Source of the DNA: Escherichia coli | GTDB lineage: Bacteria; Pseudomonadota; Gammaproteobacteria; Enterobacterales; Enterobacteriaceae | Strand: one strand, 5' to 3' | Length of the DNA stretch: 64,000 nucleotides | Assembly (NCBI RefSeq): GCF_024502345.1 | Contig: NZ_JALDNN010000001.1 | In this document: positions 1 through 35,278 of the stretch, in pieces | Layout of the letters: every line of letters starts with the position of its first letter | Numbering within the stretch: the stretch's first letter is position 1 | Program-made: the position numbers and the translations under genes | The notes under the pieces: model-generated | The model's database searches: none | The model's input: only the letters and a program-made list of their open reading frames with translations | What the model was told of the DNA's origin: nothing

Positions 1-92
1 AGGCCTGATAAGACGCGTCAGCGTCGCATCAGGCAACCGGCTCGGGCGTTAGATGTCGGATGCGGCGTGACCGCCTTATCCGACCTACGGGG
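1..92. repeat. REP/BIME-like palindromic units downstream of eco
   Basis: Two GC-rich imperfect palindromes of the 'gcctgatgcgacgctgacgcgtcttatcaggcct' / 'gccggatgcggcgtg..ccttatccggcctac' type typical of enterobacterial REP elements. Confidence 0.6.
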
Positions 93-111
93 TGACGCAC
101 TTCACAGCAGT

Positions 112-600
112 TTAGCGAACTACCGCGTTGTCAATTTTCTCTTCCGCCTTCCAGACGCGGTACTTCACATCTACATTGTCTGGCGTATACACCACGATCG
201 GCAGCTTGCTGTTGTAACGCAGCATTCCAGCATCGCCCAGATACGCGGTGACAAATTTCTTCTCTTTCTTGCCATCCGGGCAGGCCATCATCGTGGAAAC
301 CGGCGAGCTAACTTTATCAAAGACATAATAATCATAGCCCCAGCCTTCCAGCGTTTTGCTTTCCAGCTTCCCGCCGAGACGATGCAAATTGCAATCGACT
401 TCCAGCGTCTGACCGATTAACAGTTCTACTTTCAGGGTAGATTCATCTTCTTGCGGGGTTAACTGAATCACCTGACGCTTCATGCCTTTTTCAGCTTGTG
501 GATAAGGCGCGATTTTTTCCAGTGGCTGGACGCTCTCTGCCGCCCAGGCGGAAGTGGTGGCGAAAGCGGCAAACAATACTGCAGGTAGAATGGTCTTCAT
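112..600 (-). CDS. eco: ecotin, periplasmic serine protease inhibitor
   Basis: 162 aa ORF with signal peptide [20 protein letters not shown]; sequence recognised as ecotin. Confidence 0.95.
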
Positions 601-877
601 TTTTTGCTTTCCTTCTTCATTTATAGGTTTGCACCGATGATGTCGCTGAAGGTTAACATATTCATCAGATTTATTAATTTGCTTTATGAATAACTTAAAG
701 AATATTCAGACAATTTTACCTGCTCTTTTAGTGTTAAATTCTGATGAGAGAGCAAAACAGCAGAAATATCTCTGGTGAATTAATCGCTATATAAATATAT
801 TTATAACCATTTGAAATGTGAGCAAAAGCCCGTTTTTGCCACGCTTCCCGCCACTCTTTTGATCCTGCTACAGGTTT

Positions 878-893
878 TACCTCGATCGGGGTA
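878..893. promoter_or_regulatory. Candidate NarP/NarL 7-2-7 heptamer pair in napF control region
   Basis: tacctcg-at-cggggta inverted heptamers (TACYYMT type) about 115 bp upstream of napF start; matches recalled architecture of the napF promoter. Confidence 0.5.
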
Positions 894-1006
894 TGCATCT
901 TTGACACATCCTTTAATATCTTAGCGGCTATAAAAATGGCTTATTAATTATGCGGTTTATTTGGTCGCTCTCAATTTTCAGAGCGCGTTAATGATGGAAG
1001 GTCAAT

Positions 1007-1501
1007 GTGAAGATTGATGCATCCCGTCGGGGCATACTCACTGGTCGCTGGCGCAAAGCCAGTAACGGTATCCGTCCGCCCTGGTCCGGTGATGAATCTC
1101 ATTTTCTGACCCATTGCACCCGCTGCGACGCCTGTATTAATGCTTGTGAAAACAACATTCTGCAACGCGGCGCGGGCGGCTATCCGAGCGTTAATTTCAA
1201 AAATAACGAGTGCAGCTTCTGTTACGCCTGCGCGCAGGCTTGCCCCGAATCGCTATTTTCTCCGCGCCACACCAGGGCCTGGGATTTGCAGTTCACCATT
1301 GGGGACGCGTGCCTGGCGTATCAGTCAGTTGAATGCCGCCGCTGTCAGGATAGCTGTGAGCCAATGGCAATTATCTTTCGCCCGACGCTCTCCGGGATCT
1401 ACCAGCCGCAACTTAATAGCCAACTTTGCAACGGATGTGGAGCATGTGCAGCCAGCTGTCCGGTATCAGCCATAACTGCGGAGTATCTCCATGCACACTA
1501 A
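1007..1501 (+). CDS. napF: ferredoxin-type protein NapF (4Fe-4S clusters)
   Basis: 164 aa, multiple CxxCxxCxxxCP motifs; first gene of nap operon. Confidence 0.95.
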   Translation: MKIDASRRGILTGRWRKASNGIRPPWSGDESHFLTHCTRCDACINACENNILQRGAGGYPSVNFKNNECSFCYACAQACPESLFSPRHTRAWDLQFTIGDACLAYQSVECRRCQDSCEPMAIIFRPTLSGIYQPQLNSQLCNGCGACAASCPVSAITAEYLHAH

Positions 1502-1754
1502 CTGGCAAGTTTGCAGCCTGGTCGTGCAGGCCAAAAGCGAACGAATTTCAGACATCAGCACCCAACTGAACGCCTTTCCCGGCTGTGAAGTTGCTGTCAG
1601 CGACGCGCCGAGCGGTCAGTTGATTGTGGTGGTGGAAGCAGAAGACAGCGAAACGCTGATCCAAACCATTGAGTCAGTACGCAACGTAGAGGGCGTGCTG
1701 GCGGTGTCGCTGGTTTATCACCAGCAGGAAGAGCAAGGTGAGGAAACACCATGA
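1491..1754 (+). CDS. napD: NapA chaperone NapD
   Basis: 87 aa ORF overlapping napF stop and napA start; recognised sequence. Confidence 0.9.
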
Positions 1755-4237
1755 AACTCAGTCGTCGTAGCTTTATGAAAGCTAACGCCGTTGCGGCCGC
1801 TGCGGCGGCTGCCGGTCTCAGCGTGCCGGGCGTTGCCCGCGCCGTTGTTGGTCAGCAGGAAGCCATCAAATGGGATAAAGCGCCGTGCCGTTTCTGCGGT
1901 ACTGGTTGCGGCGTTCTGGTCGGAACGCAGCAGGGGCGTGTGGTGGCCTGTCAGGGCGACCCGGACGCACCGGTTAACCGTGGCCTGAACTGCATTAAGG
2001 GCTATTTCCTGCCCAAGATCATGTACGGTAAAGACCGTTTGACGCAGCCGCTGCTGCGTATGAAAAACGGTAAATATGACAAAGAAGGCGAATTTACCCC
2101 AATCACCTGGGATCAGGCCTTCGATGTGATGGAAGAGAAATTCAAAACCGCCCTGAAAGAAAAAGGGCCGGAATCGATCGGTATGTTCGGTTCTGGTCAG
2201 TGGACTATCTGGGAAGGTTATGCCGCGTCCAAGCTGTTTAAAGCGGGCTTCCGTTCGAACAACATCGACCCGAACGCGCGTCACTGTATGGCGTCGGCAG
2301 TAGTTGGCTTTATGCGTACCTTTGGTATGGATGAGCCGATGGGCTGCTATGACGACATCGAGCAGGCTGACGCGTTTGTGCTGTGGGGCGCAAACATGGC
2401 GGAGATGCACCCGATCCTCTGGTCACGCATCACTAACCGTCGTCTCTCTAACCAGGACGTCACCGTGGCGGTGCTTTCAACCTACCAGCATCGTAGCTTC
2501 GAGCTGGCGGATAACGGCATCATCTTTACGCCACAGTCTGACCTGGTGATCCTGAACTACATCGCCAACTATATCATTCAAAACAATGCGATAAATCAGG
2601 ACTTCTTCAGCAAACACGTTAACCTGCGCAAAGGGGCGACGGACATCGGCTACGGTTTACGTCCGACCCATCCGCTGGAAAAAGCAGCGAAGAATCCGGG
2701 TTCTGACGCCTCCGAACCGATGAGCTTTGAAGATTACAAAGCCTTCGTTGCTGAGTATACGCTGGAAAAAACCGCTGAAATGACCGGCGTGCCGAAAGAC
2801 CAGTTAGAACAACTGGCGCAGCTGTATGCCGATCCGAACAAGAAAGTCATATCCTACTGGACGATGGGCTTCAACCAGCATACCCGTGGTGTGTGGGCCA
2901 ACAACCTGGTCTACAACCTGCACCTGCTGACCGGCAAAATTTCCCAGCCGGGTTGCGGTCCGTTCTCCCTGACCGGGCAGCCTTCCGCGTGTGGTACTGC
3001 GCGTGAAGTGGGCACCTTTGCTCACCGTCTGCCTGCGGACATGGTGGTAACTAACGAGAAACATCGTGATATCTGCGAGAAGAAGTGGAATATCCCGAGC
3101 GGCACCATTCCGGCGAAAATCGGTCTGCATGCGGTAGCACAAGACCGTGCGCTGAAAGACGGCAAGCTGAATGTTTACTGGACCATGTGTACCAACAACA
3201 TGCAGGCCGGGCCGAACATCAATGAAGAGCGTATGCCGGGCTGGCGCGATCCGCGCAACTTCATCATCGTCTCCGATCCGTATCCGACAGTCAGTGCGCT
3301 GGCCGCCGACTTGATCCTGCCGACCGCAATGTGGGTAGAGAAAGAGGGCGCTTACGGTAACGCCGAACGCCGTACTCAGTTCTGGCGTCAGCAGGTACAG
3401 GCGCCAGGCGAAGCGAAATCGGATCTCTGGCAGTTAGTCCAGTTCTCCCGCCGCTTCAAAACTGAAGAAGTATGGCCGGAAGAGCTGCTGGCGAAGAAAC
3501 CGGAACTGCGTGGCAAAACGCTGTACGAAGTTCTGTATGCCACCCCCGAAGTGAGCAAATTCCCGGTATCCGAACTGGCGGAAGATCAGCTGAACGATGA
3601 ATCCCGCGAGCTGGGCTTCTATCTGCAAAAAGGGCTGTTCGAAGAGTACGCATGGTTTGGTCGCGGTCACGGTCACGATCTCGCGCCGTTCGATGACTAC
3701 CACAAAGCGCGCGGTCTGCGCTGGCCGGTGGTGAACGGTAAAGAAACGCAGTGGCGTTACAGCGAAGGTAACGACCCGTACGTGAAAGCGGGCGAAGGCT
3801 ATAAGTTCTACGGTAAACCGGATGGTAAAGCGGTGATCTTCGCGCTGCCGTTCGAACCGGCGGCGGAAGCACCGGATGAAGAGTACGACCTGTGGCTCTC
3901 TACCGGACGCGTCCTGGAGCACTGGCACACCGGCAGTATGACTCGCCGTGTGCCGGAACTGCACCGTGCCTTCCCGGAAGCGGTCCTGTTTATTCACCCG
4001 CTGGATGCGAAAGCGCGCGATCTGCGCCGTGGCGACAAAGTGAAAGTGGTTTCTCGCCGTGGCGAAGTGATCTCGATTGTCGAAACGCGCGGTCGTAACC
4101 GTCCGCCGCAGGGCCTGGTGTACATGCCGTTCTTCGACGCCGCACAGCTGGTTAACAAACTAACGCTGGACGCGACCGATCCGCTCTCGAAAGAGACGGA
4201 CTTCAAGAAGTGCGCGGTCAAACTGGAGAAGGTGTAA
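1751..4237 (+). CDS. napA: periplasmic nitrate reductase catalytic subunit NapA (Tat signal, molybdopterin)
   Basis: 828 aa; N-terminal twin-arginine motif SRRSFMKA; CxxCxxxC cluster; recognised. Confidence 0.97.
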
Positions 4238-4243
4238 GCCATT

Positions 4244-4939
4244 ATGTCCCGGTCAGCGAAACCTCAAAATGGTCGCCGCCGCTTTCTGCGCGATGTCGTT
4301 CGCACAGCAGGCGGGCTGGCTGCCGTGGGTGTGGCGCTGGGGTTACAACAGCAAACCGCACGCGCATCTGGCGTGCGGTTGCGCCCGCCCGGAGCCATAA
4401 ACGAGAACGCCTTTGCCAGTGCCTGTGTGCGTTGCGGTCAGTGTGTTCAGGCTTGCCCTTACGACACCTTAAAACTGGCGACGCTGGCCTCTGGCCTGTC
4501 GGCGGGCACGCCATATTTTGTCGCACGGGATATTCCTTGCGAAATGTGTGAGGACATTCCGTGCGCCAAAGTGTGCCCGAGCGGTGCGCTGGATCGTGAG
4601 ATTGAATCGATCGACGACGCGCGGATGGGGCTGGCGGTACTGGTGGACCAGGAAAACTGTCTCAACTTTCAGGGGCTGCGCTGCGATGTTTGTTATCGCG
4701 AATGCCCGAAAATTGATGAGGCCATCACCCTGGAGCTGGAGCGCAACACGCGTACCGGTAAGCACGCCCGCTTTCTGCCGACGGTTCACAGCGACGCCTG
4801 TACCGGTTGCGGTAAGTGCGAAAAAGTATGCGTGCTGGAACAACCGGCAATCAAGGTGTTACCGCTGTCACTGGCGAAAGGGGAGTTAGGTCACCATTAC
4901 CGCTTCGGCTGGCTGGAGGGGAACAATGGCAAATCGTAA
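4244..4939 (+). CDS. napG: ferredoxin-type protein NapG
   Basis: 231 aa, Tat-like signal (RRRFLR), four Cys clusters. Confidence 0.95.
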
Positions 4940-5789
4940 ACGTGACGCCGGGCGCGAGGCGCTGGAGAAAAAAGGCTGGTGGCGCAGTCACCGTTGGCTG
5001 GTGTTACGTCGCCTTTGTCAGTTCTTCGTGCTGGGGATGTTTTTGAGCGGTCCGTGGTTTGGTGTGTGGATCTTGCACGGCAACTACAGCAGTAGCCTGT
5101 TATTCGACACCGTTCCGCTGACCGATCCGCTGATGACGCTGCAAAGTCTTGCCAGTGGTCATCTGCCTGCCACGGTGGCGTTGACCGGTGCGGTGATTAT
5201 CACCGTGCTCTACGCCCTGGCAGGAAAGCGATTATTTTGCAGCTGGGTCTGCCCGCTGAACCCGATTACCGACTTAGCGAACTGGTTACGCAGGCGCTTT
5301 GACCTCAATCAGTCTGCGACGATCCCTCGCCACATTCGCTACGTGCTGTTGGTGGTCATTCTGGTGGGATCTGCCTTAACTGGCACGCTCATCTGGGAAT
5401 GGATCAACCCCGTTTCCCTGATGGGGCGTAGCCTGGTAATGGGCTTCGGCAGCGGCGCGCTGCTTATTCTCGCGCTGTTTTTATTTGATCTACTGGTCGT
5501 TGAACACGGCTGGTGCGGGCACATTTGTCCGGTTGGCGCGCTGTATGGCGTGCTGGGTAGCAAAGGTGTGATTACCGTTGCGGCCAGCGATCGGCAGAAA
5601 TGTAACCGCTGTATGGATTGTTTTCATGTTTGCCCGGAACCGCATGTGCTACGTGCCCCGGTGCTGGATGAACAAAGCCCGGTGCAGGTCACCAGCCGCG
5701 ATTGCATGACGTGCGGTCGCTGCGTGGATGTCTGTTCTGAGGATGTATTTACAATAACTACACGATGGAGTTCGGGAGCGAAATCATGA
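4926..5789 (+). CDS. napH: membrane ferredoxin-type protein NapH
   Basis: 287 aa, TM helices plus C-terminal Cys clusters. Confidence 0.95.
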
Positions 5790-6229
5790 AAAGCCATGAC
5801 CTGAAGAAAGCGCTGTGTCAATGGACGGCGATGCTGGCCCTGGTGGTAAGCGGCGCGGTTTGGGCGGCTAATGGCGTCGATTTTAGCCAGTCGCCGGAAG
5901 TATCCGGGACGCAGGAAGGGGCCATTCGGATGCCAAAAGAGCAGGATCGGATGCCGCTGAACTATGTGAATCAGCCGCCAATGATCCCGCATAGCGTTGA
6001 AGGTTATCAGGTAACGACCAATACCAACCGCTGCTTGCAGTGCCACGGTGTCGAAAGCTATCGCACCACTGGCGCGCCGCGTATCAGTCCTACTCACTTT
6101 ATGGACAGCGACGGCAAAGTGGGCGCGGAAGTGGCTCCGCGTCGTTATTTCTGTCTGCAATGTCACGTACCGCAGGCCGATACCGCGCCAATCGTGGGGA
6201 ATACCTTTACCCCATCAAATACCGAATGA
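5786..6229 (+). CDS. napB: dihaem cytochrome c NapB, with C-terminus altered by a novel joint
   Basis: [13 protein letters not shown]...; two CxxCH haem motifs; the last residues (..TPSNTE) differ from the recalled K-12 C-terminus (..TPSKGYGK). Confidence 0.9.
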   Translation: MKSHDLKKALCQWTAMLALVVSGAVWAANGVDFSQSPEVSGTQEGAIRMPKEQDRMPLNYVNQPPMIPHSVEGYQVTTNTNRCLQCHGVESYRTTGAPRISPTHFMDSDGKVGAEVAPRRYFCLQCHVPQADTAPIVGNTFTPSNTE

Positions 6230-6671
6230 AGTGGACTATCGAAAATTGCAGGAACTGTTCACGCGGATCGCCATCGATAAACATATTCAGCAAAAGCTTG
6301 AACATCCTCACCACCAGCTGGTGGCTACCTACCAGTCATTAAACCGCAAGTATTCAGAATTGCTGGAGGAATACAAAATCCTTCGGCGCTGCTTCTCTGT
6401 TTCCGCTCTTGTTCCTTATACCGACGTATGGACACATAAGCCTGTTCAGTTTTATCCAGGCAAACATCCATGCGAAAAACCTGCCGACATGCTGAAACAG
6501 ATCATTAGCGCCAGCAGCAGACCGGGGGATATCGTTGCCGATTTCTTTATGGGCTCTGGTTCAACTGTGAAAGCTGCAATAGAACTTGGCCGTCGGGCGA
6601 TCGGCGTAGAACTGGAGGCAGACAGGTTTATACAGACCACCGAAGAGGTGGAAAAACTGAAAAAATCATAA
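6220..6671 (+). pseudogene. 5'-truncated N6-adenine/N4-cytosine DNA methyltransferase (C-terminal fragment only)
   Basis: Translation contains HPCEKP then DIVADFFMGSGSTVKAAIELGRRAIGVE (SAM-binding FxGxG block of beta-class MTases); no start codon and no N-terminal DPPY catalytic motif; reading frame begins at the napB joint. Confidence 0.7.
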
Positions 6672-6816
6672 CGATCACCACGCTCCCCCGTTGCTGTGGT
6701 GATCACCATCTTCAGGCACCGGGAATCATCCTTAATTTTTACTTGAACATAAGAGCCCGGTTGCCTGATCCCCTTCAATCACACACAGCGCCATCCGAAC
6801 TATCGGAGGTGAGGCT

Positions 6817-7095
6817 ATGACCAGAATGAGCACCATTTACAGCAGACTTTCATATGGATCAGGAACCACGCTTGCCGGCTGCGGTGTATCAGCGAAGGCA
6901 TATGCCGAAACAGCTAAAACAGCAAAAGAGGTGTCCTGGATGTTGGCCGACAGAATTGCAGGGTTAAGCCTGAGTGACTGGGCAATTATTGTCGGTATCG
7001 CATGCACAGTTATCACCTGTGCAGTGAACTGGTATTACAGGAAAAAGGAAAGGGAGGACCGGCTTAATGGCAATGTCACCAAAGCAGAAGAATAA
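6817..7095 (+). CDS. phage holin
   Basis: 92 aa, hydrophobic helix WAIIVGIACTVITCAVNWYY, charged C-terminus, immediately upstream of endolysin. Confidence 0.7.
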   Translation: MTRMSTIYSRLSYGSGTTLAGCGVSAKAYAETAKTAKEVSWMLADRIAGLSLSDWAIIVGIACTVITCAVNWYYRKKEREDRLNGNVTKAEE

Positions 7096-7615
7096 ACTGA
7101 GCGCAGCGGTCGTTGGGTTAATTCTTGCCGGGGCTTCCGCACCCGTGATTCTCGATCAGTTTCTGGATGAGAAAGAGGGTAACAGCACAACAGCGTACAA
7201 GGACGGCTCTGGTATATGGACCATTTGTCGTGGCGCTACGATGGTTGATGGCAAGCCAGTAGTTCAGGGCATGAAGCTGTCTGCTGAGAAATGTTCCAAG
7301 GTGAACGCCATAGAACGCGACAAGGCGCTGGCGTGGGTCGAGCGAAACATCAAGGTGCCACTGACCGAACCACAGAAAGCCGGGATCGCGTCTTTCTGCC
7401 CATATAACATCGGTCCCGGAAAATGTTTCCCATCTACGTTCTATAAGCGAATAAATGCTGGCGACCGTGAAGGTGCCTGTGAAGCGATCCGCTGGTGGAT
7501 AAAAGACGGTGGTCGCGATTGTCGTCTGACCAAAGGGCAGAAGAACGGTTGCTATGGTCAGGTTGAACGGCGAGACCAGGAAAGCGCGTTGACGTGCTGG
7601 GGGATAGACCAGTGA
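7067..7615 (+). CDS. phage endolysin, lysozyme family with N-terminal signal-anchor (SAR-type)
   Basis: 182 aa; N-terminal hydrophobic [18 protein letters not shown] followed by lysozyme-like body; position between holin and Rz. Confidence 0.8.
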
Positions 7616-8127
7616 GCCTGCGCTATCAGTTCATTGTTATTTTGTTGCTGGTGGCCGTTGCATTCTTCGCGGGTAGTGTATGGAGCAGCCGCGGTTGGGA
7701 AAAGAAGTGGGCCGAGCGTGACAGCGTAGAATCATCGCAAACAGCGAACGCACAGACCGCCGCTCGCATGATTGAACAAGGGCGTATTATTGCCCGTGAT
7801 GAGGCTGTAAAAGATGCACAAGCACAAGCCGCTAAATCCGCTGCCACTGCTGCTGGCCTGTCTGCCACTGTTAACCAGCTGCGTACCGAAGCAACAAAGC
7901 TTGCCACTCGCCTGGACGCCGCAAAGCACACCGCAGATCTTGCCACTGCCGTCAGAAGCAAAACAGCCGGAGCCGACGCCGCAGTGCTCGCCGACATGCT
8001 CGGACGCCTTGCAGAAGAAGCTCGATATTATGCTGAGCGATCTGACGAAAGCTACCGGGCAGGAATGACGTGTGAGCGCATTTACGACTCAGTGAGGCAG
8101 TCAAACAACAACAGGGTTAGAAGATGA
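7594..8127 (+). CDS. i-spanin (Rz-like); true start may be GTG at 7612
   Basis: N-terminal TM ([15 protein letters not shown]), coiled-coil Ala/Gln-rich periplasmic domain; Rz1 nested in +1 frame. Confidence 0.8.
7814..8068 (+). CDS. o-spanin (Rz1-like lipoprotein) nested inside Rz
   Basis: Signal peptide with lipobox LLTSC, proline-rich mature region; entirely embedded in Rz in another frame. Confidence 0.75.
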
Positions 8128-8354
8128 ACGCAGAAAACCTAAGTGAAGCGTATTACCTCAATAACGATATAAAAGAACTACAACTTCAGAAAAGCATACT
8201 GGAAAGTGGTGCCGGACTTGGTGTGACAATCCAGTCTACCTATCAGGATAACGCCTTTCTTGATGCCATACGCCCGCATGCAGTGGCTGAACTTGATCGC
8301 CGTATTGTGGAGAAGAAAAAAAACCTCTCCACTCTGGGTGTTACATTCTCTTAA
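8124..8354 (+). CDS. hypothetical protein, start overlaps Rz stop (ATGA)
   Basis: 76 aa ORF translationally coupled to Rz; no recognisable motif. Confidence 0.45.
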
Positions 8355-8701
8355 ATGAGAACAACAATAAAAGGTTATGTCTGCTTTGCCACATTCTGAG
8401 AGTATGAGTTTTATTTGGTAGTCAATCAGTTACTTTATTGGTTTGCTTTCCGATGGAAGATAGATGTTTCCACAGAAGGGGCAAATTAACGTTATATTGT
8501 TTTTTATTCTCGACAGACTGTGCTTTGACTGGCGGGAGCAATGAGGACAAGTACTTTTCACATGGCGTAAAGTACGCATCTTGATATCTTTGAGTATCGA
8601 CATGTTGATTGTCCTGGTGGGCGGTTAACAACCATACACCACATGTTGGCTAATAGCTTCTTTTATAACCGTTACGATGTAGTCGTTAGCCATAATCAAT
8701 C

Positions 8702-8727
8702 AAGCCTCGCAATAGCGGGGCTTTTTA
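8702..8727 (+). terminator. possible hairpin plus T-run
   Basis: agcctcgc-aata-gcggggct followed by ttttt. Confidence 0.35.
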
Positions 8728-8738
8728 ACAACTGAGGA

Positions 8739-8942
8739 ATGAGCATTACAGTAGTTCTTACAGCTAAGCAGATTGAAGACCTGGCTGCCTTCGCAAAAGA
8801 AGATGGCCAGCCACAATATACCATCACTACCGGAACAATCCCTGAGTTCGAAGCGGATGATGGCGAGGTTATCCCTGAGTACACCGGGCTGATTGCCTAT
8901 TCCGAGTCGCTAGAGCATAGCGTTCTACAGCTCGATAACTAA
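8739..8942 (+). CDS. hypothetical small acidic protein
   Basis: 67 aa, Asp/Glu-rich, SD-like gaggaa upstream; a degenerate copy of its 3' end recurs at 10.8-10.96 kb. Confidence 0.5.
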   Translation: MSITVVLTAKQIEDLAAFAKEDGQPQYTITTGTIPEFEADDGEVIPEYTGLIAYSESLEHSVLQLDN

Positions 8943-8969
8943 CGAATCAACATAACTTTCCATCCGCCA

Positions 8970-9135
8970 TGACACCACAATGCTCGTAGACATGCCAGGA
9001 AGCCTGGCAGAAGAAGCTCGATACCATGCTGAACGCGCTGATGAAAACTACCGAGCAGGAATGACATGTGAGCGGATTTATGAGTCCGTAAAAATACTAA
9101 CAATGAACCGTAGAGGAAAAATAATAGCTCTATAA
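8970..9135 (+). pseudogene. duplicated 3' fragment of the Rz gene
   Basis: 9006-9092 is an imperfect direct repeat of 8011-8097 (gcagaagaagctcgata..gcaggaatgac.tgtgagcg..attta); would encode ..[27 protein letters not shown].. Confidence 0.7.
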
Positions 9136-9514
9136 ATTAAGATGTTGACGGTTTTCGTGGATAAATTTGTGAATTTTTACTATGAAGGAAATACGACTCT
9201 TCCTTGAGTCAAAATCCCTGACAACTTAGGGTGATAGATAAAGGTCTTACGCAGCATGACATAATTTTCGATTTAAGCTATTTAAATTAATTTTTAAGAT
9301 CAAAACCCACTGAGATTTACTTACAAAACTAAACCTTGCTATGTCTGGTTAATCATGCGTTAATGAATGTCTGGTTTGTAACGAATTTATCTGAAGCAGT
9401 CGCTGTAATAATTTTATTCCTTGTTCCTGTTGAGATTTCCTTGTTAGCTTTTCTCTCTGATAAATTTTTTTCGGACCATTCTGCCCAAGGGCTTACTCAA
9501 TAAAGGTAATGTTT

Positions 9515-9727
9515 ATGTCTAATAAAATGACTGGTTTAGTTAAATGGTTTAATCCTGAAAAAGGTTTTGGTTTTATCACTCCAAAAGATGGTAGTAAAGA
9601 TGTGTTTGTTCACTTCTCTGCTATCCAGAGTAATGATTTCAAGACGTTGAATGAGAATCAGGAAGTTGAATTTAGTGTTGAACAGGGACCTAAAGGCCCC
9701 ACGGCAGTTAATGTCGTGGCTGTATAA
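9515..9727 (+). CDS. cold-shock protein (CspA family), prophage-borne
   Basis: 70 aa [23 protein letters not shown]...; long AT-rich 5' leader typical of csp genes. Confidence 0.9.
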
Positions 9728-9931
9728 GGTAACTGTTATTACTAATAATATTCACTTCAGATGTCCGTGTTGCCACGGATCTCAGTACCGAACGTCAAAC
9801 TTTGATGTTACTGAAAAAAATCCTTTCGGAGCAAAATGTATTTTTTGCAAATCAACAATGATTACATTTGATAATATTGCACTGTACATTCGTTCTGGTC
9901 AGTCTTCGTTAGAATTCAGAAAATAAATTTC

Positions 9932-9955
9932 AGGCTCCTTATGGAGCCTTTTTTG
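9932..9955 (+). terminator. rho-independent terminator
   Basis: aggctcc-ttat-ggagcct followed by tttttt. Confidence 0.7.
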
Positions 9956-9999
9956 TATGCTGAACCGACAATCTCTGTAAGAGACATCACGGTAAAATT

Positions 10000-10230
10000 A
10001 TGAAAAAAGTCATCGTTTTTTTTAATGCAGAACCAGCAGTTGTTGTAACCGTAATGAAAGGTATTACTACGATAATGCGTGAGTTTCCCAATGGGGAAAA
10101 AGCACACCTACCCGTGATGTCAGCGGGATTTCCATCTCTGACAGGAGACCATAAAATAGTTTATGTAGCCTCTGATCGTGATGTCAGTTCAGAAGAGATC
10201 CTCGAGGCAGCCTCGAAGCTTTTGAAATGA
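10000..10230 (+). CDS. hypothetical protein
   Basis: 76 aa ORF; weak RBS; no recognisable motif. Confidence 0.35.
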   Translation: MKKVIVFFNAEPAVVVTVMKGITTIMREFPNGEKAHLPVMSAGFPSLTGDHKIVYVASDRDVSSEEILEAASKLLK

Positions 10231-10434
10231 GATCTGGTTGTTTCGTGACCGACCCGGATTTTAGTACAGTGGTTTGTGTGGTCGCGAGCTCTTTTGCATG
10301 AAGATTGTACTGCAAACTATTGATAATTGAGTCTTTCTATTCTATCTTTTAAACATATCAGCGCTTATACAAGTGCTCTACGGGGAATGTAACATGCCTG
10401 GCGTTGATACGTTAGAGATCAAGAGAGGTAAACA

Positions 10435-10608
10435 ATGAACGTCGAAGATTTAAAAAGAAAAACTGAAGCGGATATTTCTGAATTCATCACAAAAAAAATT
10501 ATTGAACTCAAAAAAAAGACAGGAAAAGAAGTTTCCGATATCCAGTTTAATGCTCGTGAAAAAATGACTGGGCTTGAAAGCTATGATATTAAAATCACAT
10601 TAATCTAA
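10435..10608 (+). CDS. GnsA/GnsB-family small protein
   Basis: 57 aa MNVEDLKRKTEADISEFITKKIIELKKKTGKEVSDIQFNAREKMTGLESYDIKITLI; strong similarity to recalled GnsA/GnsB; below the 60-aa cutoff of the ORF track. Confidence 0.8.
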   Translation: MNVEDLKRKTEADISEFITKKIIELKKKTGKEVSDIQFNAREKMTGLESYDIKITLI

Positions 10609-10632
10609 TTGTTATAAGACTCAGTTCGAGTG

Positions 10633-10667
10633 AAAAAGCATTATCTTGAAAGGTAATGCTTTTTTAT
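10633..10667 (+). terminator. rho-independent terminator after gns-like gene
   Basis: aaagcatta-tcttgaaagg-taatgcttt followed by tttatttc. Confidence 0.7.
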
Positions 10668-10760
10668 TTCTGTCATAAAATTTAGAACGTTGTCAAAGCC
10701 TTCACTTCTAACCACAGATTTTCTGCTTACCTTTTAACGGGTCCTCCTTGACGATTCTGA

Positions 10761-10964
10761 CCATCGAGGGGCAGCAGCGGCGCGGGATTTGGAGCATTTT
10801 TGATTCTTCACGCAACCATTTCAGCATTTGATGCTGATGACGGAACACTATCCCCGAATACACTGGGTTTGTTGCATTCTCTGATTCAAAAGAACACGGT
10901 GTGCTTCAACTTGGCTGAGCAGGCATTACAGCAGACATTCACTGAGTGCCTGCGACAAAGTTAA
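10761..10964 (+). pseudogene. start-less 3' remnant related to the 8739-8942 gene
   Basis: Frame encodes ..FDADDGTLSPNTLGLL.. resembling ..FEADDGEVIPEYTGLI.. of the 8739 ORF; no in-frame start codon after the upstream stop. Confidence 0.45.
10921..10958 (+). repeat. ~35-bp boundary repeat, copy 1
   Basis: cattacagcagacattcactgagtgcctgcgacaa; near-identical copy at 11311-11343. Confidence 0.6.
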
Positions 10965-11049
10965 ATGGCATCAAGCATGCGATGATGATTGATTAATAAT
11001 TGAGCTATGCATGGTATAATAAGCCCCATTCATTGAAAGGTTAACCACC

Positions 11050-11214
11050 ATGTCATTTTTCGATTATGCAATGCAGCGTGTTGGGCTTGCAGCCAATACG
11101 ACTGTCATGTGCCCGATATGCGGACATAAATCCACACACTCGACCACGAAAGTACGCCAACAACAGGCGTTACTTTGCCCTAAATGTAAATCGCTGTTTG
11201 TCATTCACAGATAA
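11050..11214 (+). CDS. small zinc-ribbon protein (CxxC...CxxC)
   Basis: 54 aa MSFFDYAMQRVGLAANTTVMCPICGH...LCPKCKSLFVIHR; upstream -10 tataat at ~11015; two terminators downstream. Confidence 0.6.
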   Translation: MSFFDYAMQRVGLAANTTVMCPICGHKSTHSTTKVRQQQALLCPKCKSLFVIHR

Positions 11215-11232
11215 CATGCGACCTGCTGAATA

Positions 11233-11257
11233 TAACCGCCTACGGGCGGTTTTTTAT
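11233..11257 (+). terminator. rho-independent terminator
   Basis: accgcctacgggcggt followed by tttttt. Confidence 0.75.
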
Positions 11258-11268
11258 TGCCATCACAA

Positions 11269-11293
11269 AGGCCACTTTCGAGTGGCTTTTTTA
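11269..11293 (+). terminator. second rho-independent terminator
   Basis: gccactttcgagtggc followed by ttttttaa. Confidence 0.65.
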
Positions 11294-11310
11294 ATGGTCA
11301 TCACGACGGG

Positions 11311-11343
11311 TATTACAGCAGGAATTACTGAGTGCCTGCGATA
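11311..11343 (+). repeat. ~35-bp boundary repeat, copy 2
   Basis: tattacagcaggaattactgagtgcctgcgataat; matches 10921-10958. Confidence 0.6.
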
Positions 11344-11370
11344 ATGCTCAATATTTTTATCGGAGTGAAT

Positions 11371-11559
11371 ATGCCACCGCGCACACCGAAGGCCGGCCTG
11401 AAAGGGGCGATACAAAAAAGGGAAAAAATGAAAAGACATAAGCGAAATAAAAAAGCCACCACATCTGCAAATGTGATGGCTGGCATTCGGATTAATTCAG
11501 GTTGGCTGAATAAGTTAGCCGCAGATATTACTAAAATAATTAATGAAGCATGTCCCTAA
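11371..11559 (+). CDS. hypothetical small basic protein
   Basis: 62 aa from ATG with ggag SD; Lys/Arg-rich; no known motif. Confidence 0.3.
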   Translation: MPPRTPKAGLKGAIQKREKMKRHKRNKKATTSANVMAGIRINSGWLNKLAADITKIINEACP

Positions 11560-11956
11560 TCTCATCTGAGATATCTCTTGGCCCTGCAGGCTGAGGCGCA
11601 ACCAACCGGGTCGGAAGTCTCTCGAAGAAACCACCACCACCATGATGATGAAAACCCCGGTTATTTTTATAACTATTGAAGTTACTGTCGGTAGTGAGAA
11701 GGATGTTGCACTGGTGCGAGCAGTCAACAACAACGACATCACCTGCATTCAGGTGCATTCGTTTGTGAAGAAATTGCATAAGTCTCCTTATCAAGAGGCA
11801 ATCAGCACTCCTCTCAAGGCTGGTACGCCAACGTCCCACCGCTGACGGGCTGAGCCATTACCTTACCCAGACTCAACGATAAGTAACATCCTGATATTCA
11901 GACAGTAACTGTAATCGATAATGCTGAAGAATAGGCAGTAAATACAGGTGACTGAT

Positions 11957-12595
11957 ATGGCAACACTGAAGGATTTATCAAACCAGTTAAAGCAACTGCA
12001 AAAGCAAATCCCGTTTGCCACAGCTCAGGCGATGACAAAAGTTGTACGCCAGATTGAGTTGGCTCAGAAGACGGCATTCGAACGACATCTGGAGAGCCCC
12101 ACGCCGTTTACCGTTAAATCAGTTGGTTCGGTGGCGGCAAGAAAGAACAATCTGACCGCAAAGGTTTTTGTCCGTGATACCGCTGCTGGTTATCTGGAAC
12201 CATTCGAGTTTGGCGGAGAGCACAAGCTCAATAGCCAGGCTCTATTAAATCCCAAGAACGTTAAGCTAAACAAATACGGCAACATGCCGCGTAATAAGCT
12301 CTCACAGCTTAAAGCAAAGGAAAATGTATTCGTAGGTGAGGTTGATGGCGTTAACGCTGTCTGGCAGCGTAAGAAGCCGATGAAAGCTAAGAAGCGACGG
12401 GCCAAACGTTCCGCTAACGGGACGCGAAGACCGAAACGCAAACAGCGTTCTCCAAAGCTTTTGATCCGGTTTGGTGATGCGCTACCTGTGACTCCAGTGC
12501 TGGGGTATATGGATAGGGCCCGTACCATGGCGAACGCACTGCTACCGTCTGCTTTAAATCAGGCGATAGCAGAAGCCATCAGGACGGCAAAATAA
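11957..12595 (+). CDS. hypothetical phage protein with highly basic segment
   Basis: 213 aa (alternative GTG start at 11948); SD aggtga; region RKKPMKAKKRRAKRSANGTRRPKRKQRSPK suggests nucleic-acid binding. Confidence 0.6.
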   Translation: MATLKDLSNQLKQLQKQIPFATAQAMTKVVRQIELAQKTAFERHLESPTPFTVKSVGSVAARKNNLTAKVFVRDTAAGYLEPFEFGGEHKLNSQALLNPKNVKLNKYGNMPRNKLSQLKAKENVFVGEVDGVNAVWQRKKPMKAKKRRAKRSANGTRRPKRKQRSPKLLIRFGDALPVTPVLGYMDRARTMANALLPSALNQAIAEAIRTAK

Positions 12596-12605
12596 AAGCA
12601 GTAAC

Positions 12606-13109
12606 TTATAAGTTAATTTCGCAAGCTTTTATGAAGCTGTTTACTGCAGTTGTCGATCCAGAAACATTGGCTGACATGGAATGCTGGTTTCCGCCATCCT
12701 TTGTTTGCACACCAACTAACACTTTGGATTTCGCCCCCTGAAGCTGCTTAAGCACTGTTTTCAGTTGGTCCGTGTCATCCGATTGAATCTGGAGGCTCTG
12801 AACATTACGTCTTGAAAGGGTAGCATCGAGCTTCACTGCGGTATTCCCGTCGACCTTCATTATCAGGTCCATTGGTACCTCTGATAGTGATTCGGTGCTT
12901 TTATCCATTTCAACGTATGCCGCCGATAGCTTTTCTTTAGTGCAGTCAAACACAATGGCGCCATTGTCGGATGAAACCTCGCCAAGCATCATTGCTTTCT
13001 TACCACCAGAGAAAAGGTCATCTTCAGTATTAGTTACCCACTGGGCATGAGCAATTGGTGATGCCAGCACTGCGGCTACGAAAGTTATTTTGATTATATT
13101 GTTACCCAT
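12606..13109 (-). CDS. secreted/periplasmic protein of unknown function (opposite-strand cargo gene)
   Basis: 168 aa; strong SD aaggagaatgta; signal peptide MGNNIIKITFVAAVLASPIAHA|QW; convergent with and 10 bp from the preceding gene. Confidence 0.6.
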   Translation of the reverse strand: MGNNIIKITFVAAVLASPIAHAQWVTNTEDDLFSGGKKAMMLGEVSSDNGAIVFDCTKEKLSAAYVEMDKSTESLSEVPMDLIMKVDGNTAVKLDATLSRRNVQSLQIQSDDTDQLKTVLKQLQGAKSKVLVGVQTKDGGNQHSMSANVSGSTTAVNSFIKACEINL

Positions 13110-13252
13110 TACATTCTCCTTGTATTGAATAGGAATAATCATAGTCGGAGCGAATGGTCGAAGCCATTAAAAAAATGGGTCCTTCCTGAGACTTTTGTAA
13201 GGCACGGGCATTGCGCGCCGCGGTGTTTTCCTAGCTACAACTTTCAGATTTG

Positions 13253-13402
13253 TGTCCCATGTCCCACCTCTGGCGATCATTACGGACACCTCGCCAGCTC
13301 TGGCTATTCCAGTTTATTCCAGTGGGACATTCTGGTGGGACATGGCAAAAATGTCCCAGGCGAATGTCCCACCCCAGAAAATGTCCCAGGTGATGTCCCA
13401 TG
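13253..13402. repeat. Cluster of eight TGTCCCA/TGGGACA heptamer repeats immediately upstream of terminase small subunit
   Basis: Copies at 13253, 13260, 13323(rc), 13336(rc), 13352, 13365, 13382, 13394; the last overlaps the terS ATG. Confidence 0.7.
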
Positions 13403-13969
13403 ACCACGATGAACCAGAGTCAGTACGCACAACATTCAGGTGTGGATCGCAAAACAATTGGTCGGTGGATTAAAGCCGGGCGCTTCATTGTGATGGACGG
13501 AGACCTGATTGACGTAGAGGCCAGCGATGCGGCATTGAAGAAAAACCGCGATGGCAAAGACCCGCGCGCCTCGAACGCGAAGAAAAAGAAAACTCCCGTC
13601 GTTAGCGATAACGATGATGACGGTGATGAAATCAATAAAACTGTCCGCCAGATAATGCTCACTGAAGGGGCAGATCTTTCGAGAGAGGAAGCGGGACGTA
13701 TCCGCGAGAATTACATGGCCCTGCAGGCAAAGCTGCAGTATGAAAAAGACAGCGGCCAGCTTATTGAGCTGACAGCAGCCGAGGAGGTTTTATTCAACGC
13801 CTTTCGCCAACAGCGTGATGCCTGGCTTAACTGGCCGTCCAGGGTGGCGCCGCTAATGGCTGCTGATCTGGATGTACCGGCGGACAGGATGACAGAGGTG
13901 CTGATTGAACATGTCCACAAACACATCTCAGTCCTCGGAGAGCCAGAGTTTAACCCGGCAGAAGATTGA
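13400..13969 (+). CDS. terminase small subunit (Nu1-like, N-terminal HTH)
   Basis: 189 aa; N-terminal ..VDRKTIGRWIKAGRF.. winged-helix pattern as in lambda Nu1; followed by large terminase. Confidence 0.7.
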   Translation: MTTMNQSQYAQHSGVDRKTIGRWIKAGRFIVMDGDLIDVEASDAALKKNRDGKDPRASNAKKKKTPVVSDNDDDGDEINKTVRQIMLTEGADLSREEAGRIRENYMALQAKLQYEKDSGQLIELTAAEEVLFNAFRQQRDAWLNWPSRVAPLMAADLDVPADRMTEVLIEHVHKHISVLGEPEFNPAED

Positions 13970-33352: not shown

Positions 33353-33492
33353 GCCATTCCGGGTCTGCTGTATCAACGTGCATCAGCAGCACCCGGTATT
33401 TCTTTCACTCGCTTAGAGCGGTGGTTTCTTCCTCCGTCGCAATACCTGCATCAACAGCATCCTGACGCCGGTCAATCTCTGAGTCTGCCTGC

Positions 33493-33518
33493 GCTCGTAA
33501 ACCAACCTTTTTTATAAC
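33493..33518. promoter_or_regulatory. Candidate invertase crossover site (gix/hix-like)
   Basis: gctcgtaaacc-aa-ccttttttataa resembles the 26-bp gix (ttcctgtaaacc-ga-ggttttggataa) and hix sites; ~60 bp upstream of pin, as in Mu gixR/gin. Confidence 0.4.
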
Positions 33519-33576
33519 CATCAAAAATCTGGTGATGCTTCGCCGTTTCTCCTGTTTTCATAACAGGAGAAATCCC

Positions 33577-34131
33577 ATGATTTACGGTTATGCCCGAGTA
33601 TCAACAAACCACCAGGACACTGAATTGCAACTAACGGCGCTCAAGTCAGCGGGTTGTGAGAAAATTTTTGAAGAGCATGCCAGCGGGAGGAAATCGAATC
33701 GGCCGGTTCTAAAACGGCTCATCGCCACTATGCAGCCGGGGGATGAACTGGTGGTATGGAAACTAGATCGCCTCGGGCGAAGCATGCGAAATTTAGTGCT
33801 GCTGGTCGACGAACTCCGACAGCGGGGCATTCACTTTAAGAGCCTCACGGACAGCATTGATACATCAAGTCCAATGGGGCGTTTTATATTTCACATCATG
33901 TCAGCGCTGGCGGAAATGGAAAGAGAGTTAATCGTCGAACGCACCCGGGCTGGATTAGCGGCTGCGCGGGAAAAAGGGAGAATAGGTGGCAGACGTCCAA
34001 AATTAACTCCCGAGCAATGGGCACAGGCTGGGAGATTAATATTAAACGGCGTGGATAGAAAACAAGTGGCAATAATTTATGATGTCGCTGTATGCACGCT
34101 TTATAAAAAATTTCCGGTGGGGCAGGCTTAA
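33577..34131 (+). CDS. pin: serine-recombinase DNA invertase (Pin/Gin/Hin family)
   Basis: 184 aa MIYGYARVSTNHQD... with catalytic Ser near N-terminus and C-terminal HTH. Confidence 0.9.
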   Translation: MIYGYARVSTNHQDTELQLTALKSAGCEKIFEEHASGRKSNRPVLKRLIATMQPGDELVVWKLDRLGRSMRNLVLLVDELRQRGIHFKSLTDSIDTSSPMGRFIFHIMSALAEMERELIVERTRAGLAAAREKGRIGGRRPKLTPEQWAQAGRLILNGVDRKQVAIIYDVAVCTLYKKFPVGQA

Positions 34132-34173: not shown

Positions 34174-34437
34174 TTATCCATTTTGCCGGACAGTTGGAAA
34201 TTCAGACGTCAGCCACATGTCAGATTCATCAAACATTTCCTCCAGCATACGGTTCAGCTTTTCCCGATCACTTTTGCTGGCATCACTATTTAAGCCGTTC
34301 GCCTGCATCGGCTTTACCTTCACTTCGGCATCAGGAAAAATCTGGTGCACCCGCTTCGTTAGTTCAGCCAGGATGATCTCTCTGGCCCCTTGGAGTCCTT
34401 CAACATTTCGCTTGTCATAAACCAGTTCAACAAACAT
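34174..34437 (-). CDS. DinI-family protein
   Basis: 87 aa MFVELVYDK...AELTKRVHQIFPDAEVKVKP...ESDMWLTSE; SD gagagga; LexA box upstream. Confidence 0.8.
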   Translation of the reverse strand: MFVELVYDKRNVEGLQGAREIILAELTKRVHQIFPDAEVKVKPMQANGLNSDASKSDREKLNRMLEEMFDESDMWLTSEFPTVRQNG

Positions 34438-34493
34438 ACCGATCCTCTCATAAGTGAAAATTGCCTGTGCTTGATCTGTTTTTATAAAAATAC

Positions 34494-34513
34494 TACTGTA
34501 TATGCATACAGTC
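34494..34513. promoter_or_regulatory. LexA (SOS) box between divergent genes
   Basis: tactgtatatgcatacagtc fits CTGT-N8-ACAG; 57 bp upstream of dinI-like start and 24 bp upstream of the 34537 ORF. Confidence 0.8.
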
Positions 34514-34536
34514 AATAAGCGAGTGAGGGTGCGTTC

Positions 34537-34776
34537 ATGCCTCGTCAACCGGATATTCGTGCTGCTTTTATTGCGGCCATACAGCAAAACCCGAAGGGCT
34601 ATCTCTGCCTGCATACAGACAGATTCATCGCTGAACTGCAGGAGAGGCGCTGGCACTTCAGCCAGGCGGATGCAAATTCATGGATCGAACGATACCAGCC
34701 AGACTTCGCCGATAAGACGACAAACGGAAGTGAGAACCGATACTGGATCCTGCGTAACATGGGGAGGGTTTTCTAA
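34537..34776 (+). CDS. hypothetical protein, first gene of SOS-box-associated pair
   Basis: 79 aa; SD gagggtg; stop overlaps next start (TAATG). Confidence 0.65.
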   Translation: MPRQPDIRAAFIAAIQQNPKGYLCLHTDRFIAELQERRWHFSQADANSWIERYQPDFADKTTNGSENRYWILRNMGRVF

Positions 34777-35096
34777 TGGGGTTTCCATCGCCAGCCATGG
34801 ATTACCAGGAGCAGCGCATGACAATAGATGTTATCTGTGGTGTAGATAACAACTGCCGGGTTATTGAAACTTCATGCGGCTGGGCCGTTATAAACGTCAG
34901 TCTTAAGCCAGAAGGAGGGGATACGTTGCTGGTTAGCATGGACGGGAGAAACCAGTTCGTGAAGCTAATGGGCCACGCGCTGATCACTCAAGATGGTGAA
35001 GCGATAGAAGGGGAAGCTTTGAATGACGTAACGGTACACGGCGTTCTAACACATACACTTAACCAAGTTAAGGACGATAAATCGCCTGTAATGTAG
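34776..35096 (+). CDS. hypothetical protein, second gene of pair
   Basis: 106 aa; translationally coupled; followed by bidirectional terminator. Confidence 0.6.
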   Translation: MGFPSPAMDYQEQRMTIDVICGVDNNCRVIETSCGWAVINVSLKPEGGDTLLVSMDGRNQFVKLMGHALITQDGEAIEGEALNDVTVHGVLTHTLNQVKDDKSPVM

Positions 35097-35164
35097 CGTG
35101 TAAATGTCGGGGGTTATTCCCCCATTTTTCCCCAATGATTCCCCGTACAAATTTCAAACATAAA

Positions 35165-35190
35165 AAAACCAGCCGTAAGAGGCTGGTTTT
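35165..35190. terminator. bidirectional rho-independent terminator (proL and the 34776 gene)
   Basis: aaaaaaa-ccagcc-gtaaga-ggctgg-tttt. Confidence 0.8.
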
Positions 35191-35201
35191 CAATGTGTTT
35201 T

Positions 35202-35278
35202 TGGTCGGCACGAGAGGATTTGAACCTCCGACCCCCGACACCCCATGACGGTGCGCTACCAGGCTGCGCTACGTGCCG
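35202..35278 (-). tRNA. proL: tRNA-Pro
   Basis: 77 nt; reverse complement reads CGGCACGTAGCGCAGCCTGGTAGCGCACCGTCATGGGGTGTCGGGGGTCGGAGGTTCAAATCCTCTCGTGCCGACCA. Confidence 0.95.

Follow-up and report, generated by a model that had tools for sequence, protein, structure and literature searches.

What might a pair of small, overlapping genes at the edge of a prophage do for the phage, or for its host, under DNA damage? The question is raised by ORF79 and ORF106, two plus-strand genes beside the tRNA gene proL in a 64,000-nucleotide (nt) stretch of Escherichia coli DNA (contig NZ_JALDNN010000001.1 of assembly GCF_024502345.1; the whole stretch is called the window below), which face a DinI-like gene across a LexA box. 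The initial annotation of the window, made from its letters alone, had proposed that damage induces the pair together with the DinI homologue, and had found neither product to resemble a family that could be named. The reading that we tentatively favour is that of a phage cassette, switched on by DNA damage, that either provides pre-activated UmuD' at the host's DNA polymerase V (Pol V) or competes with it there, and the evidence that carries it begins with the second gene.

ORF106 is a predicted protease-dead UmuD' relative

ORF106 (34776-35096, plus strand) encodes a short UmuD'/HumD-type protein of 106 amino acids (aa). It matches PHROG 3469 ('UmuD-like protein') from end to end at 1e-47, and its residues 2-14 (GFPSPAMDYQEQR) present, at the very N-terminus, the arm motif GFPSPAxDYxE found at UmuD residues 25-37 (GFPSPAADYVEQR). 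The match to the start of UmuD' is exact over residues 2-22, and the protein begins at the equivalent of UmuD Gly25, the residue exposed by RecA-mediated cleavage. Across 65 short-form sequences, with bodies down to 32% identity, the arm shows no change at G2, F3, S5, P6, A7 and D9 and hardly any at P4 and Y10. A profile of this 65-member family finds solved UmuD/UmuD' structures in the PDB (1.7e-8; query residues 2-96 against residues 25-136), and hhalign aligns the family with UmuD at a probability of 97.4%. In an AlphaFold2 (AF2) model, the body of ORF106 has a predicted local distance difference test score (pLDDT) of 80-90, and the top Foldseek matches of the model are the LexA C-terminal domain and UmuD' (probability 1.00). 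Database annotation, including phage records, already labels ORF106 as UmuD-like, and the record of phage mEp390 notes similarity to HumD.

The alignment also indicates what this protein has lost. An 11-residue deletion removes the loop with the nucleophile Ser60, and the general base Lys97 is replaced by Val. Together with a start at the cleavage residue, these changes mark ORF106 as a predicted protease-dead, 'pre-cleaved' UmuD' relative. A conserved LITxDGEAIEGEAL motif takes the place of the segment between Lys97 and the last strand, and the family is strongly acidic, with a median net charge of -9. Profile and structure comparison, a check put forward with the initial annotation, thus led from ORF106 to UmuD/UmuD' and from ORF79 to a predicted winged helix. 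The claim that neither product has a nameable family no longer applies to the 106-aa protein; for the 79-aa protein it stands, as the family in question, PHROG 3893, is uncharacterised.

A conserved LexA box between divergent promoters

The LexA box TACTGTATATGCATACAGTC (34494-34513) agrees with the consensus TACTGTATATATATACAGTA at 17 of its 20 bases, with three mismatches. We judged it by mismatches to the consensus, by shuffles and by conservation. Chance would place the bare core CTGT-N8-ACAG in a window 0.68 times, so the core alone proves little. An equally good 20-mer arose in none of 100 shuffles, and no second one is present in the 64 kb of the window. We then compared 87 related loci, comprising annotated phages, E. 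coli genomes and 80 IMG/VR contigs. In 84 of them, a LexA box precedes the start codon of ORF79 by 31-44 nt. Its arms (TACTGT/ACAGT) are essentially fixed across these loci and the eight central bases are variable, the pattern expected for a functional operator. The box precedes ORF79 in phages of five genera (Escherichia, Klebsiella, Erwinia, Cronobacter and Pantoea) with ORF79 proteins just 30-50% identical to that of the window. The humD-type genes of phages P1, N15 and BTP1 have a box at the equivalent distance.

This box overlaps promoter-like sites on both strands and is the predicted common operator of two divergent promoters. On the plus strand, the predicted promoter of ORF79-ORF106 places a -35 element, TTGATC (34471-34476), 17 nt ahead of a -10 element, TACTGT (34494-34499), which coincides with the first six bases (the left arm) of the box; an overlap with the likely -10 had been noticed in the initial annotation. 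This promoter was read from the sequence and scored below the threshold of our scan tool. The arrangement TTGATC-17-TACTGT recurs in loci of Escherichia, Klebsiella and Cronobacter; the spacing is 18 nt in Pantoea, and Erwinia shows the arrangement less clearly. Promoter p95 of phage 186, the classical phage promoter under LexA control, is annotated with the same design, its -10 being the first six bases of a LexA box. On the minus strand, a consensus scan places the predicted promoter of the DinI-like gene at -35 TTGACT (34515-34510) and -10 TATTTT (34492-34487), separated by a 17-nt spacer; the box fills this -35 and spacer.

The DinI-like gene itself (34174-34437, minus strand; 87 aa, counted from the ATG after the ribosome-binding site GAGAGGA) is transcribed away from the box. 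It matches PHROG 189 ('RecA filament binding protein DinI') at 4.5e-21, and its orthologues are named 'DinI family protein' by RefSeq/PGAP. The NCBIfam DinI model matches it at 1.8e-9, but with 37.9 bits against a curated cutoff of 111. In E. coli phages, the conserved operator would serve the DinI homologue too. Conservation of the box across genera is strong comparative evidence for the proposed LexA control of the DinI gene and the pair. We infer LexA binding in vivo from these comparisons, and consider it very likely that both divergent units are under LexA control.

In two IMG/VR loci (L013:2410-2500 and L058:2410-2500), a recombination junction falls inside the box, leaving only its right half (ATACAG) with a different sequence upstream. 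To judge from this junction, these two copies have probably lost LexA control.

A near-constant first gene and a mosaic second gene

ORF79 (34537-34776, plus strand) and ORF106 meet in the sequence TAATG, in which the TAA stop codon of the first gene and the ATG of the second have one A in common, with GGAGG upstream. This is the overlap on which translational coupling of the pair had been proposed, and it is present as described. Both ORFs are real genes under strong purifying selection, with pairwise dN/dS ratios of 0.08 (ORF79) and 0.11 (ORF106).

Their association is close. A UmuD'-like ORF follows ORF79 at a stop/start overlap in 79 of the 87 loci. Among the exceptions examined, L031 and L049 retain a decayed, truncated remnant of the second gene adjoining host fliC, and phage HK225 has a DNA invertase in the second-gene slot; a further one, L046, is a filter artefact, its product starting MCFPSPA. 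In a set of 64 distinct gene pairs, whose ORF79 proteins are 78-99% identical, the second gene falls into a long HumD-type and at least three short allele types, of which the window has one. The switch between alleles occurs right after the conserved MGFPSPA codons, and by this sequence pattern the second gene is a mosaic slot. Near-identical ORF79 proteins are thereby partnered with bodies only ~25% identical to each other, so any direct contact would have to use the invariant arm, or else the two proteins would meet through a third partner common to both. In HK140 and E. coli ABWA45, the slot behind a near-identical ORF79 and the same LexA box holds an allele of 129 aa with 67% identity to P1 HumD. 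HumD-like genes are also the more widespread of the two: in our phage collection, 113 records have a HumD-like gene as against 47 with ORF79, and P1, N15 and BTP1 are without ORF79.

Two further candidates for a link between the proteins were rejected. The few long matches that resembled natural ORF79-S24 fusion proteins are frameshift, read-through or deletion artefacts. A LexA-type cleavage site split between the ORF79 C-terminus and the ORF106 start ('GRVAAG') was discarded on the basis of distant homologues, which end NPNGGI.

ORF79 is a predicted winged-helix protein with scattered relatives

ORF79 matches PHROG 3893, a family of unknown function, at 1.6e-41. It finds nothing in Pfam (noise only) or NCBIfam, and a sequence search of the PDB likewise returned only noise (HpaB at E 0.6). 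The family is small: a set of 1.84 billion representatives contains 203 clusters of it at 50% identity, most members by far being ~79 aa long; a further search of IMG/VR gave 581 matches. From a 57-sequence alignment, AF2 returned a model at pLDDT 87.9 with the order H1-S1-H2-H3-S2-S3, which fits the winged-helix topology H1-S1-H2-H3-S2-wing-S3. Among predicted viral structures, Foldseek matched this model to its own family alone (HK225 gp28). The family is near neutral (median isoelectric point 8.7, interquartile range 6.6-9.4), the wing is acidic and the third helix is without a conserved basic residue. This charge pattern is atypical for a DNA-binding winged helix, although ORF79 may still bind DNA.

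Members of the family also occur in other settings. In two metagenomic contigs (L093:4850-6800 and L094:4990-5700), the next gene after an ORF79 homologue with its own LexA box is umuC-like (IMS family), and this is followed in turn by an arm-less remnant of a short UmuD'-like gene. The first contig is a noisy long-read assembly with frameshifts and the second a decayed copy in an AT-rich genome; their umuC-like neighbour ties the cassette to Pol V-type polymerases. A distant homologue of 74 aa (P0247; L101:2237-2694 and L102:288-745) overlaps the stop codon of a gene for a DNA polymerase III theta (Hot-like) subunit in a lambdoid early operon, between YqaJ exonuclease and MT-A70 methylase genes.

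A second distant homologue (P0233, E 3e-10; L108:9960-10243, also in L099 and L100) occurs as a solitary gene in a P2-like prophage; its place, flanked by the gene-A replication region and the portal gene, is the one that tum occupies in phage 186. The sole CTGT-N8-ACAG in 20 kb precedes it by ~20 nt, after a TTGACA -35 element. As its repressor, this prophage has an HTH_3 protein of 120 aa that lacks an S24 domain. A similar situation exists in Cronobacter phage phiES15, isolated by ultraviolet (UV) induction, which has a 134-aa repressor without an S24 domain and, in its 39,974 bp, one LexA-like site (at 39118), located before its ORF79 and UmuD'-like pair.

A cassette directed at Pol V

These results are consistent with an accessory ('moron') cassette under LexA repression, carried by a lambdoid prophage in proL at its tail-fibre/attR end, and they are compatible with the suggestion in the initial annotation of an SOS-modulating module. 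In an undamaged lysogen, one LexA operator would keep both back-to-back promoters off. DNA damage would activate RecA and so bring about LexA self-cleavage, upon which both promoters would fire. Leftward transcription would yield the DinI homologue, expected to bind RecA filaments, and rightward transcription would yield ORF79 and ORF106 as a coupled pair. ORF106 would be produced directly in the 'already cleaved' form, as is P1 HumD; a protein made in its processed form would have no further need of the Ser/Lys protease dyad, which is gone.

The presumed target of ORF106 is host UmuC, the polymerase of Pol V. The UmuD' arm, the part that ORF106 preserves best, has been modelled as inserting near the UmuC active site, and armless UmuD' is inactive according to work cited there (PMC11791011). 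The likeliest action would be to supply UmuD' function instantly, bypassing the slow RecA-dependent processing of UmuD and allowing damaged phage or host DNA to be copied during induction. Alternatively, ORF106 might act as a competitor that damps Pol V, since the short form is without those residues of the cleft that have been modelled as holding the C-terminus of UmuC. We infer both the contact with UmuC and the direction of its effect from homology. Least certain is the part played by ORF79, which may work with ORF106 through the conserved arm or through a common target, as the same ORF79 stands before very different UmuD'-like alleles.

Several results weigh against this reading. ORF106 scores only 33.6 bits with the NCBIfam HumD model (cutoff 120), and over residues 1-22 only, and 21.9 bits with the NCBIfam UmuD subfamily model (cutoff 110); Pfam returns noise, with no Peptidase_S24 match. 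Having failed these models, ORF106 belongs to a divergent subfamily, which may behave unlike HumD. A published model of Pol V holds the UmuC C-terminus with residues that fall in the deleted loop of ORF106 or at its lost Lys (PMC11791011). The cassette contains no umuC, and the interaction of ORF106 with UmuC is a prediction only. When ORF79 and ORF106 were fused by a linker and modelled by AF2 from paired and unpaired alignment rows, each part folded on its own, with no confident packing between the parts and a predicted template modelling score (pTM) of 0.42. This value gives no support for a fixed complex, nor is it strong evidence against one. Finally, ORF79-family genes are also found without a UmuD'-like partner, at the tum position of the P2-like prophage and beside the polymerase III theta homologue, which suggests that ORF79 may have a function of its own.

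If the pair does activate or block Pol V, then how fast lysogens mutate and how much damage they tolerate under SOS-inducing antibiotics would be set directly by their prophages. Many Enterobacterales prophages carry this distinct short form of UmuD', predicted to be unable to act as a protease and to keep just the UmuC-directed arm, and nearly always have it behind the uncharacterised gene of the predicted winged helix, with a conserved LexA operator in front.

Other roles for ORF79 and ORF106

ORF79 may have a function in its own right, a reading that we hold to be somewhat unlikely. ORF79 would then represent a new SOS-induced winged-helix family of temperate phages, acting either as a hitherto unrecognised partner or regulator of Pol V-type mutasomes that reads the UmuD' arm or as a new class of LexA-controlled antirepressor. 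The scattered relatives divide between these two roles. The umuC-like and theta-like neighbours point towards polymerase accessory functions, and a mutasome partner would explain them along with the varied UmuD'-like alleles. The clues from P0233 and phiES15 point towards an antirepressor, which would explain the solitary, LexA-boxed copy at the tum site and the sole LexA-like site of phiES15. If ORF79 has its own function, the short protease-dead UmuD' variant would be a phage tool for rewiring host translesion synthesis during induction.

The antirepressor role is the main rival of the Pol V reading. In this scenario, which we judge unlikely, ORF79 would bind the phage repressor after damage and trigger or speed induction, with the DinI-like and UmuD'-like genes as companions, and it would be a new family linking the SOS response to induction. 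In phage 186, Tum is an antirepressor fused to DinI, and the Gifsy phages have a dinI-antirepressor-irsA operon (PMC3121763). The present cassette shares with 186 p95-tum, with the split tum of PSP3 and Fels-2 and with Gifsy dinI-gfoA-irsA a LexA box that overlaps the -10 element, and, with the Tum and Gifsy modules, a dinI homologue linked to a small SOS-induced protein outside the immunity region, a combination that is the hallmark of these antirepressors (PMC3121763). The solitary P0233 at the tum position and UV-inducible phiES15, each with a repressor without S24 and a single LexA-like site ahead of the ORF79-family gene, argue in the same direction. These two are, however, the only carriers among those examined in which the repressor is without a self-cleavage domain. 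Five of six lambdoid carriers (mEp390, Eeyore, HK140, AH07 and vB_EhrS_59) have full-length, self-cleaving repressors of the G[DE]SM type and would need no antirepressor. In addition, the repressors of mEp390 and Eeyore are 23% identical whereas their ORF79 proteins are ~85% identical, and the tight coupling of ORF79 to a UmuD'-like gene, seen in 79 of 87 loci, is foreign to Tum-type modules. Homology to Tum was rejected, the ORF79 profile aligning with 186 Tum at an hhalign probability of 0.4%; the Gifsy antirepressors were outside this comparison.

It is improbable that ORF106, together with the DinI homologue, serves as a non-cleavable decoy in the groove of the activated RecA filament, where LexA, CI and UmuD dock, and so tunes SOS or the timing of repressor cleavage. 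An S24 fold without catalytic residues, strongly acidic and co-regulated with a DinI homologue, would suit this role, and among the structural matches of ORF106 are RecA complexes of UmuD, LexA and lambda repressor (8gmt, 8gms, 8gmu). Yet the most conserved part of ORF106 is the UmuD'-type arm rather than the body, which would make the contact with RecA, and the cleavage-site strand of real RecA substrates is missing, because the protein starts after the cleavage site.

More improbable still is a two-piece regulator, made only after damage and controlling phage or host genes, in which the winged helix of ORF79 would sit on DNA and ORF106 would supply S24-like dimerisation in the manner of LexA or UmuDAb. 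To our knowledge, no homology connects the cassette to UmuDAb-DdrR. The idea draws on the plan of LexA, a winged-helix domain and an S24 domain that flank a cleavage site: the start of ORF106 coincides exactly with this site, and in size and topology ORF79 would pass for the DNA-binding domain. It also has a functional parallel in Acinetobacter, where the UmuD homologue UmuDAb acts as a repressor with the small partner DdrR, so that a UmuD-family protein and a partner of ~80 aa work together in the DNA damage response (PMC11332147). Unlike ORF106, UmuDAb has its own DNA-binding N-terminal domain and is self-cleaving, and ddrR is divergent. The charge of ORF79, with its near-neutral family, acidic wing and third helix lacking conserved basic residues, stands against this regulator, as do the failure of AF2 to pack the parts with confidence and the pairing of the same ORF79 with such dissimilar bodies.

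A toxin-antitoxin or anti-defence module, which the initial annotation had also entertained, is very improbable: the layout alone fits, as two small overlapping genes at an accessory-gene-rich prophage edge, but Pfam, NCBIfam, PHROGs and PADLOC gave no toxin-antitoxin, defence or anti-defence family match, the second gene clearly encodes a UmuD'-like protein, the promoter has the form of a LexA-type SOS promoter rather than an antitoxin-autoregulated one, and HK225, L031 and L049 keep ORF79 with a decayed second gene, which is unexpected for an addiction pair if not conclusive. The probability that is left falls to roles of some other kind.

Relation to known phage and plasmid systems

Since the description of P1 HumD, phages have been known to carry UmuD' genes. 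What is known already extends to a LexA-controlled, pre-activated UmuD' homologue beside a DinI homologue, as in P1 (HumD), N15 (gp26) and phiKO2 (gp22/gp23). According to the P1 record, HumD 'functionally complements E. coli UmuD''; a LexA site is annotated there in the interval from lxr to humD. HumD has been described as an already activated UmuD (PMC7092418). Like ORF106, P1 HumD, N15 gp26 and phiKO2 gp23 are phage UmuD homologues that lack the N-terminal 24 residues and start with MGFPSPA. Their genes resemble the present cassette in having a LexA box 20-40 nt upstream and in lying divergent from another LexA-regulated gene (lxr in P1), and in N15, phiKO2 and HK-type phages the humD-type gene comes after tail-fibre genes, as here. 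ORF106 differs from HumD in being 23 residues shorter, in lacking the Ser60 loop and Lys97, in having its own LITxDGEAIEGEAL motif and in failing the curated HumD model. In the N15- and HK140-type forms of HumD, Thr replaces the Ser of the dyad. ORF79 also sets the cassette apart from P1 and N15, where the humD-type gene directly follows the box.

ImpC, encoded by the plasmid operon impCAB, is DinI-like. Besides homologues of UmuD and UmuC, the operon encodes a third protein (PMC7092418), and is thus a precedent for extra accessory genes next to UmuD homologues. Like impCAB (compare umuDC and mucAB), the cassette is an SOS operon on a mobile element that combines a small accessory gene with a UmuD homologue (PMC7092418). 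Unlike impCAB, it has no UmuC/ImpB polymerase gene, its DinI-like gene is divergent instead of heading the operon, its UmuD homologue is pre-truncated and predicted to be protease-dead, and a winged-helix gene is added.

Our literature search found no paper on the ORF79-ORF106 pair. Nor did we find a description of the loop-deleted, protease-dead short subfamily as a distinct entity, of its near-obligatory winged-helix partner, or of the wider spread of that partner to a tum-like site and to umuC-like and theta-like neighbours.

The prophage edge and its surroundings

All elements named in the initial annotation (box, DinI ORF, gene pair, terminators and proL) lie where it had placed them. Downstream of ORF106, a small terminator-like hairpin with a T-run lies at 35109-35123 on the plus strand; as GGGGGTTATTCCCCC plus a T-rich tail, it extends over 35109-35133. 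A second terminator-like hairpin, which could act on either strand, lies in the interval between the operon and proL (35165-35191). The tRNA-Pro(GGG) gene proL (35202-35278, minus strand) was identified by ARAGORN and Rfam, and in an Rfam scan of 33-36 kb this tRNA alone passed. A weak Rfam IS009 match at 33364-33560 reached 46.6 bits against a gathering score of 117.

ORF106 ends ~100 bp from proL, within the attR region. Alignment with the complete phage Eeyore shows homology across the cassette and, from its attP, on into the 3' part of proL, to ~35258, which bears out the proposal that this is the tRNA-proximal end of a prophage. This 3' part of proL is common to the attP of related phages and thus marks attR, and homology that runs through the cassette into proL makes the cassette the last coding unit before attR. 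Its neighbours are tail-fibre genes and a DNA invertase gene (33532-34131) on the 5' side and a yejM-like host gene on the 3' side. The invertase is of the Gin/Pin type, and its gene comes after tail-fibre and tail-fibre-assembly genes. In Eeyore and ABWA45, copies of the tail-fibre gene lie in opposite orientations at the counterpart of this region (window positions 33364-34131), an arrangement that suggests an invertible host-range segment.

The left side of the prophage is less complete. Host genes eco-napFDAGHB extend to ~6229 and are followed directly by a fragment of a phage DNA methylase gene, a lysis cassette and structural/late genes. Among the ORFs of the remnant's left side (window positions 1-13500), we found no integrase or immunity region, and napC is absent from the ORFs after napB. 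The phage part measures ~29 kb, compared with 45 kb in the relative Eeyore. A deletion seems to have taken out the phage early region and truncated the left side near 6229. On the K-12 map, we take ccm and narP to lie normally between nap and proL; by that order, the deletion would also have removed host napC, ccm and narP. The cassette itself is intact here and its relatives are under purifying selection, so it would answer the host's SOS signal whether or not any phage can be induced. Between the lysis and terminase genes, the remnant also carries a CspA-family cold-shock gene of 72 aa (9509-9727).

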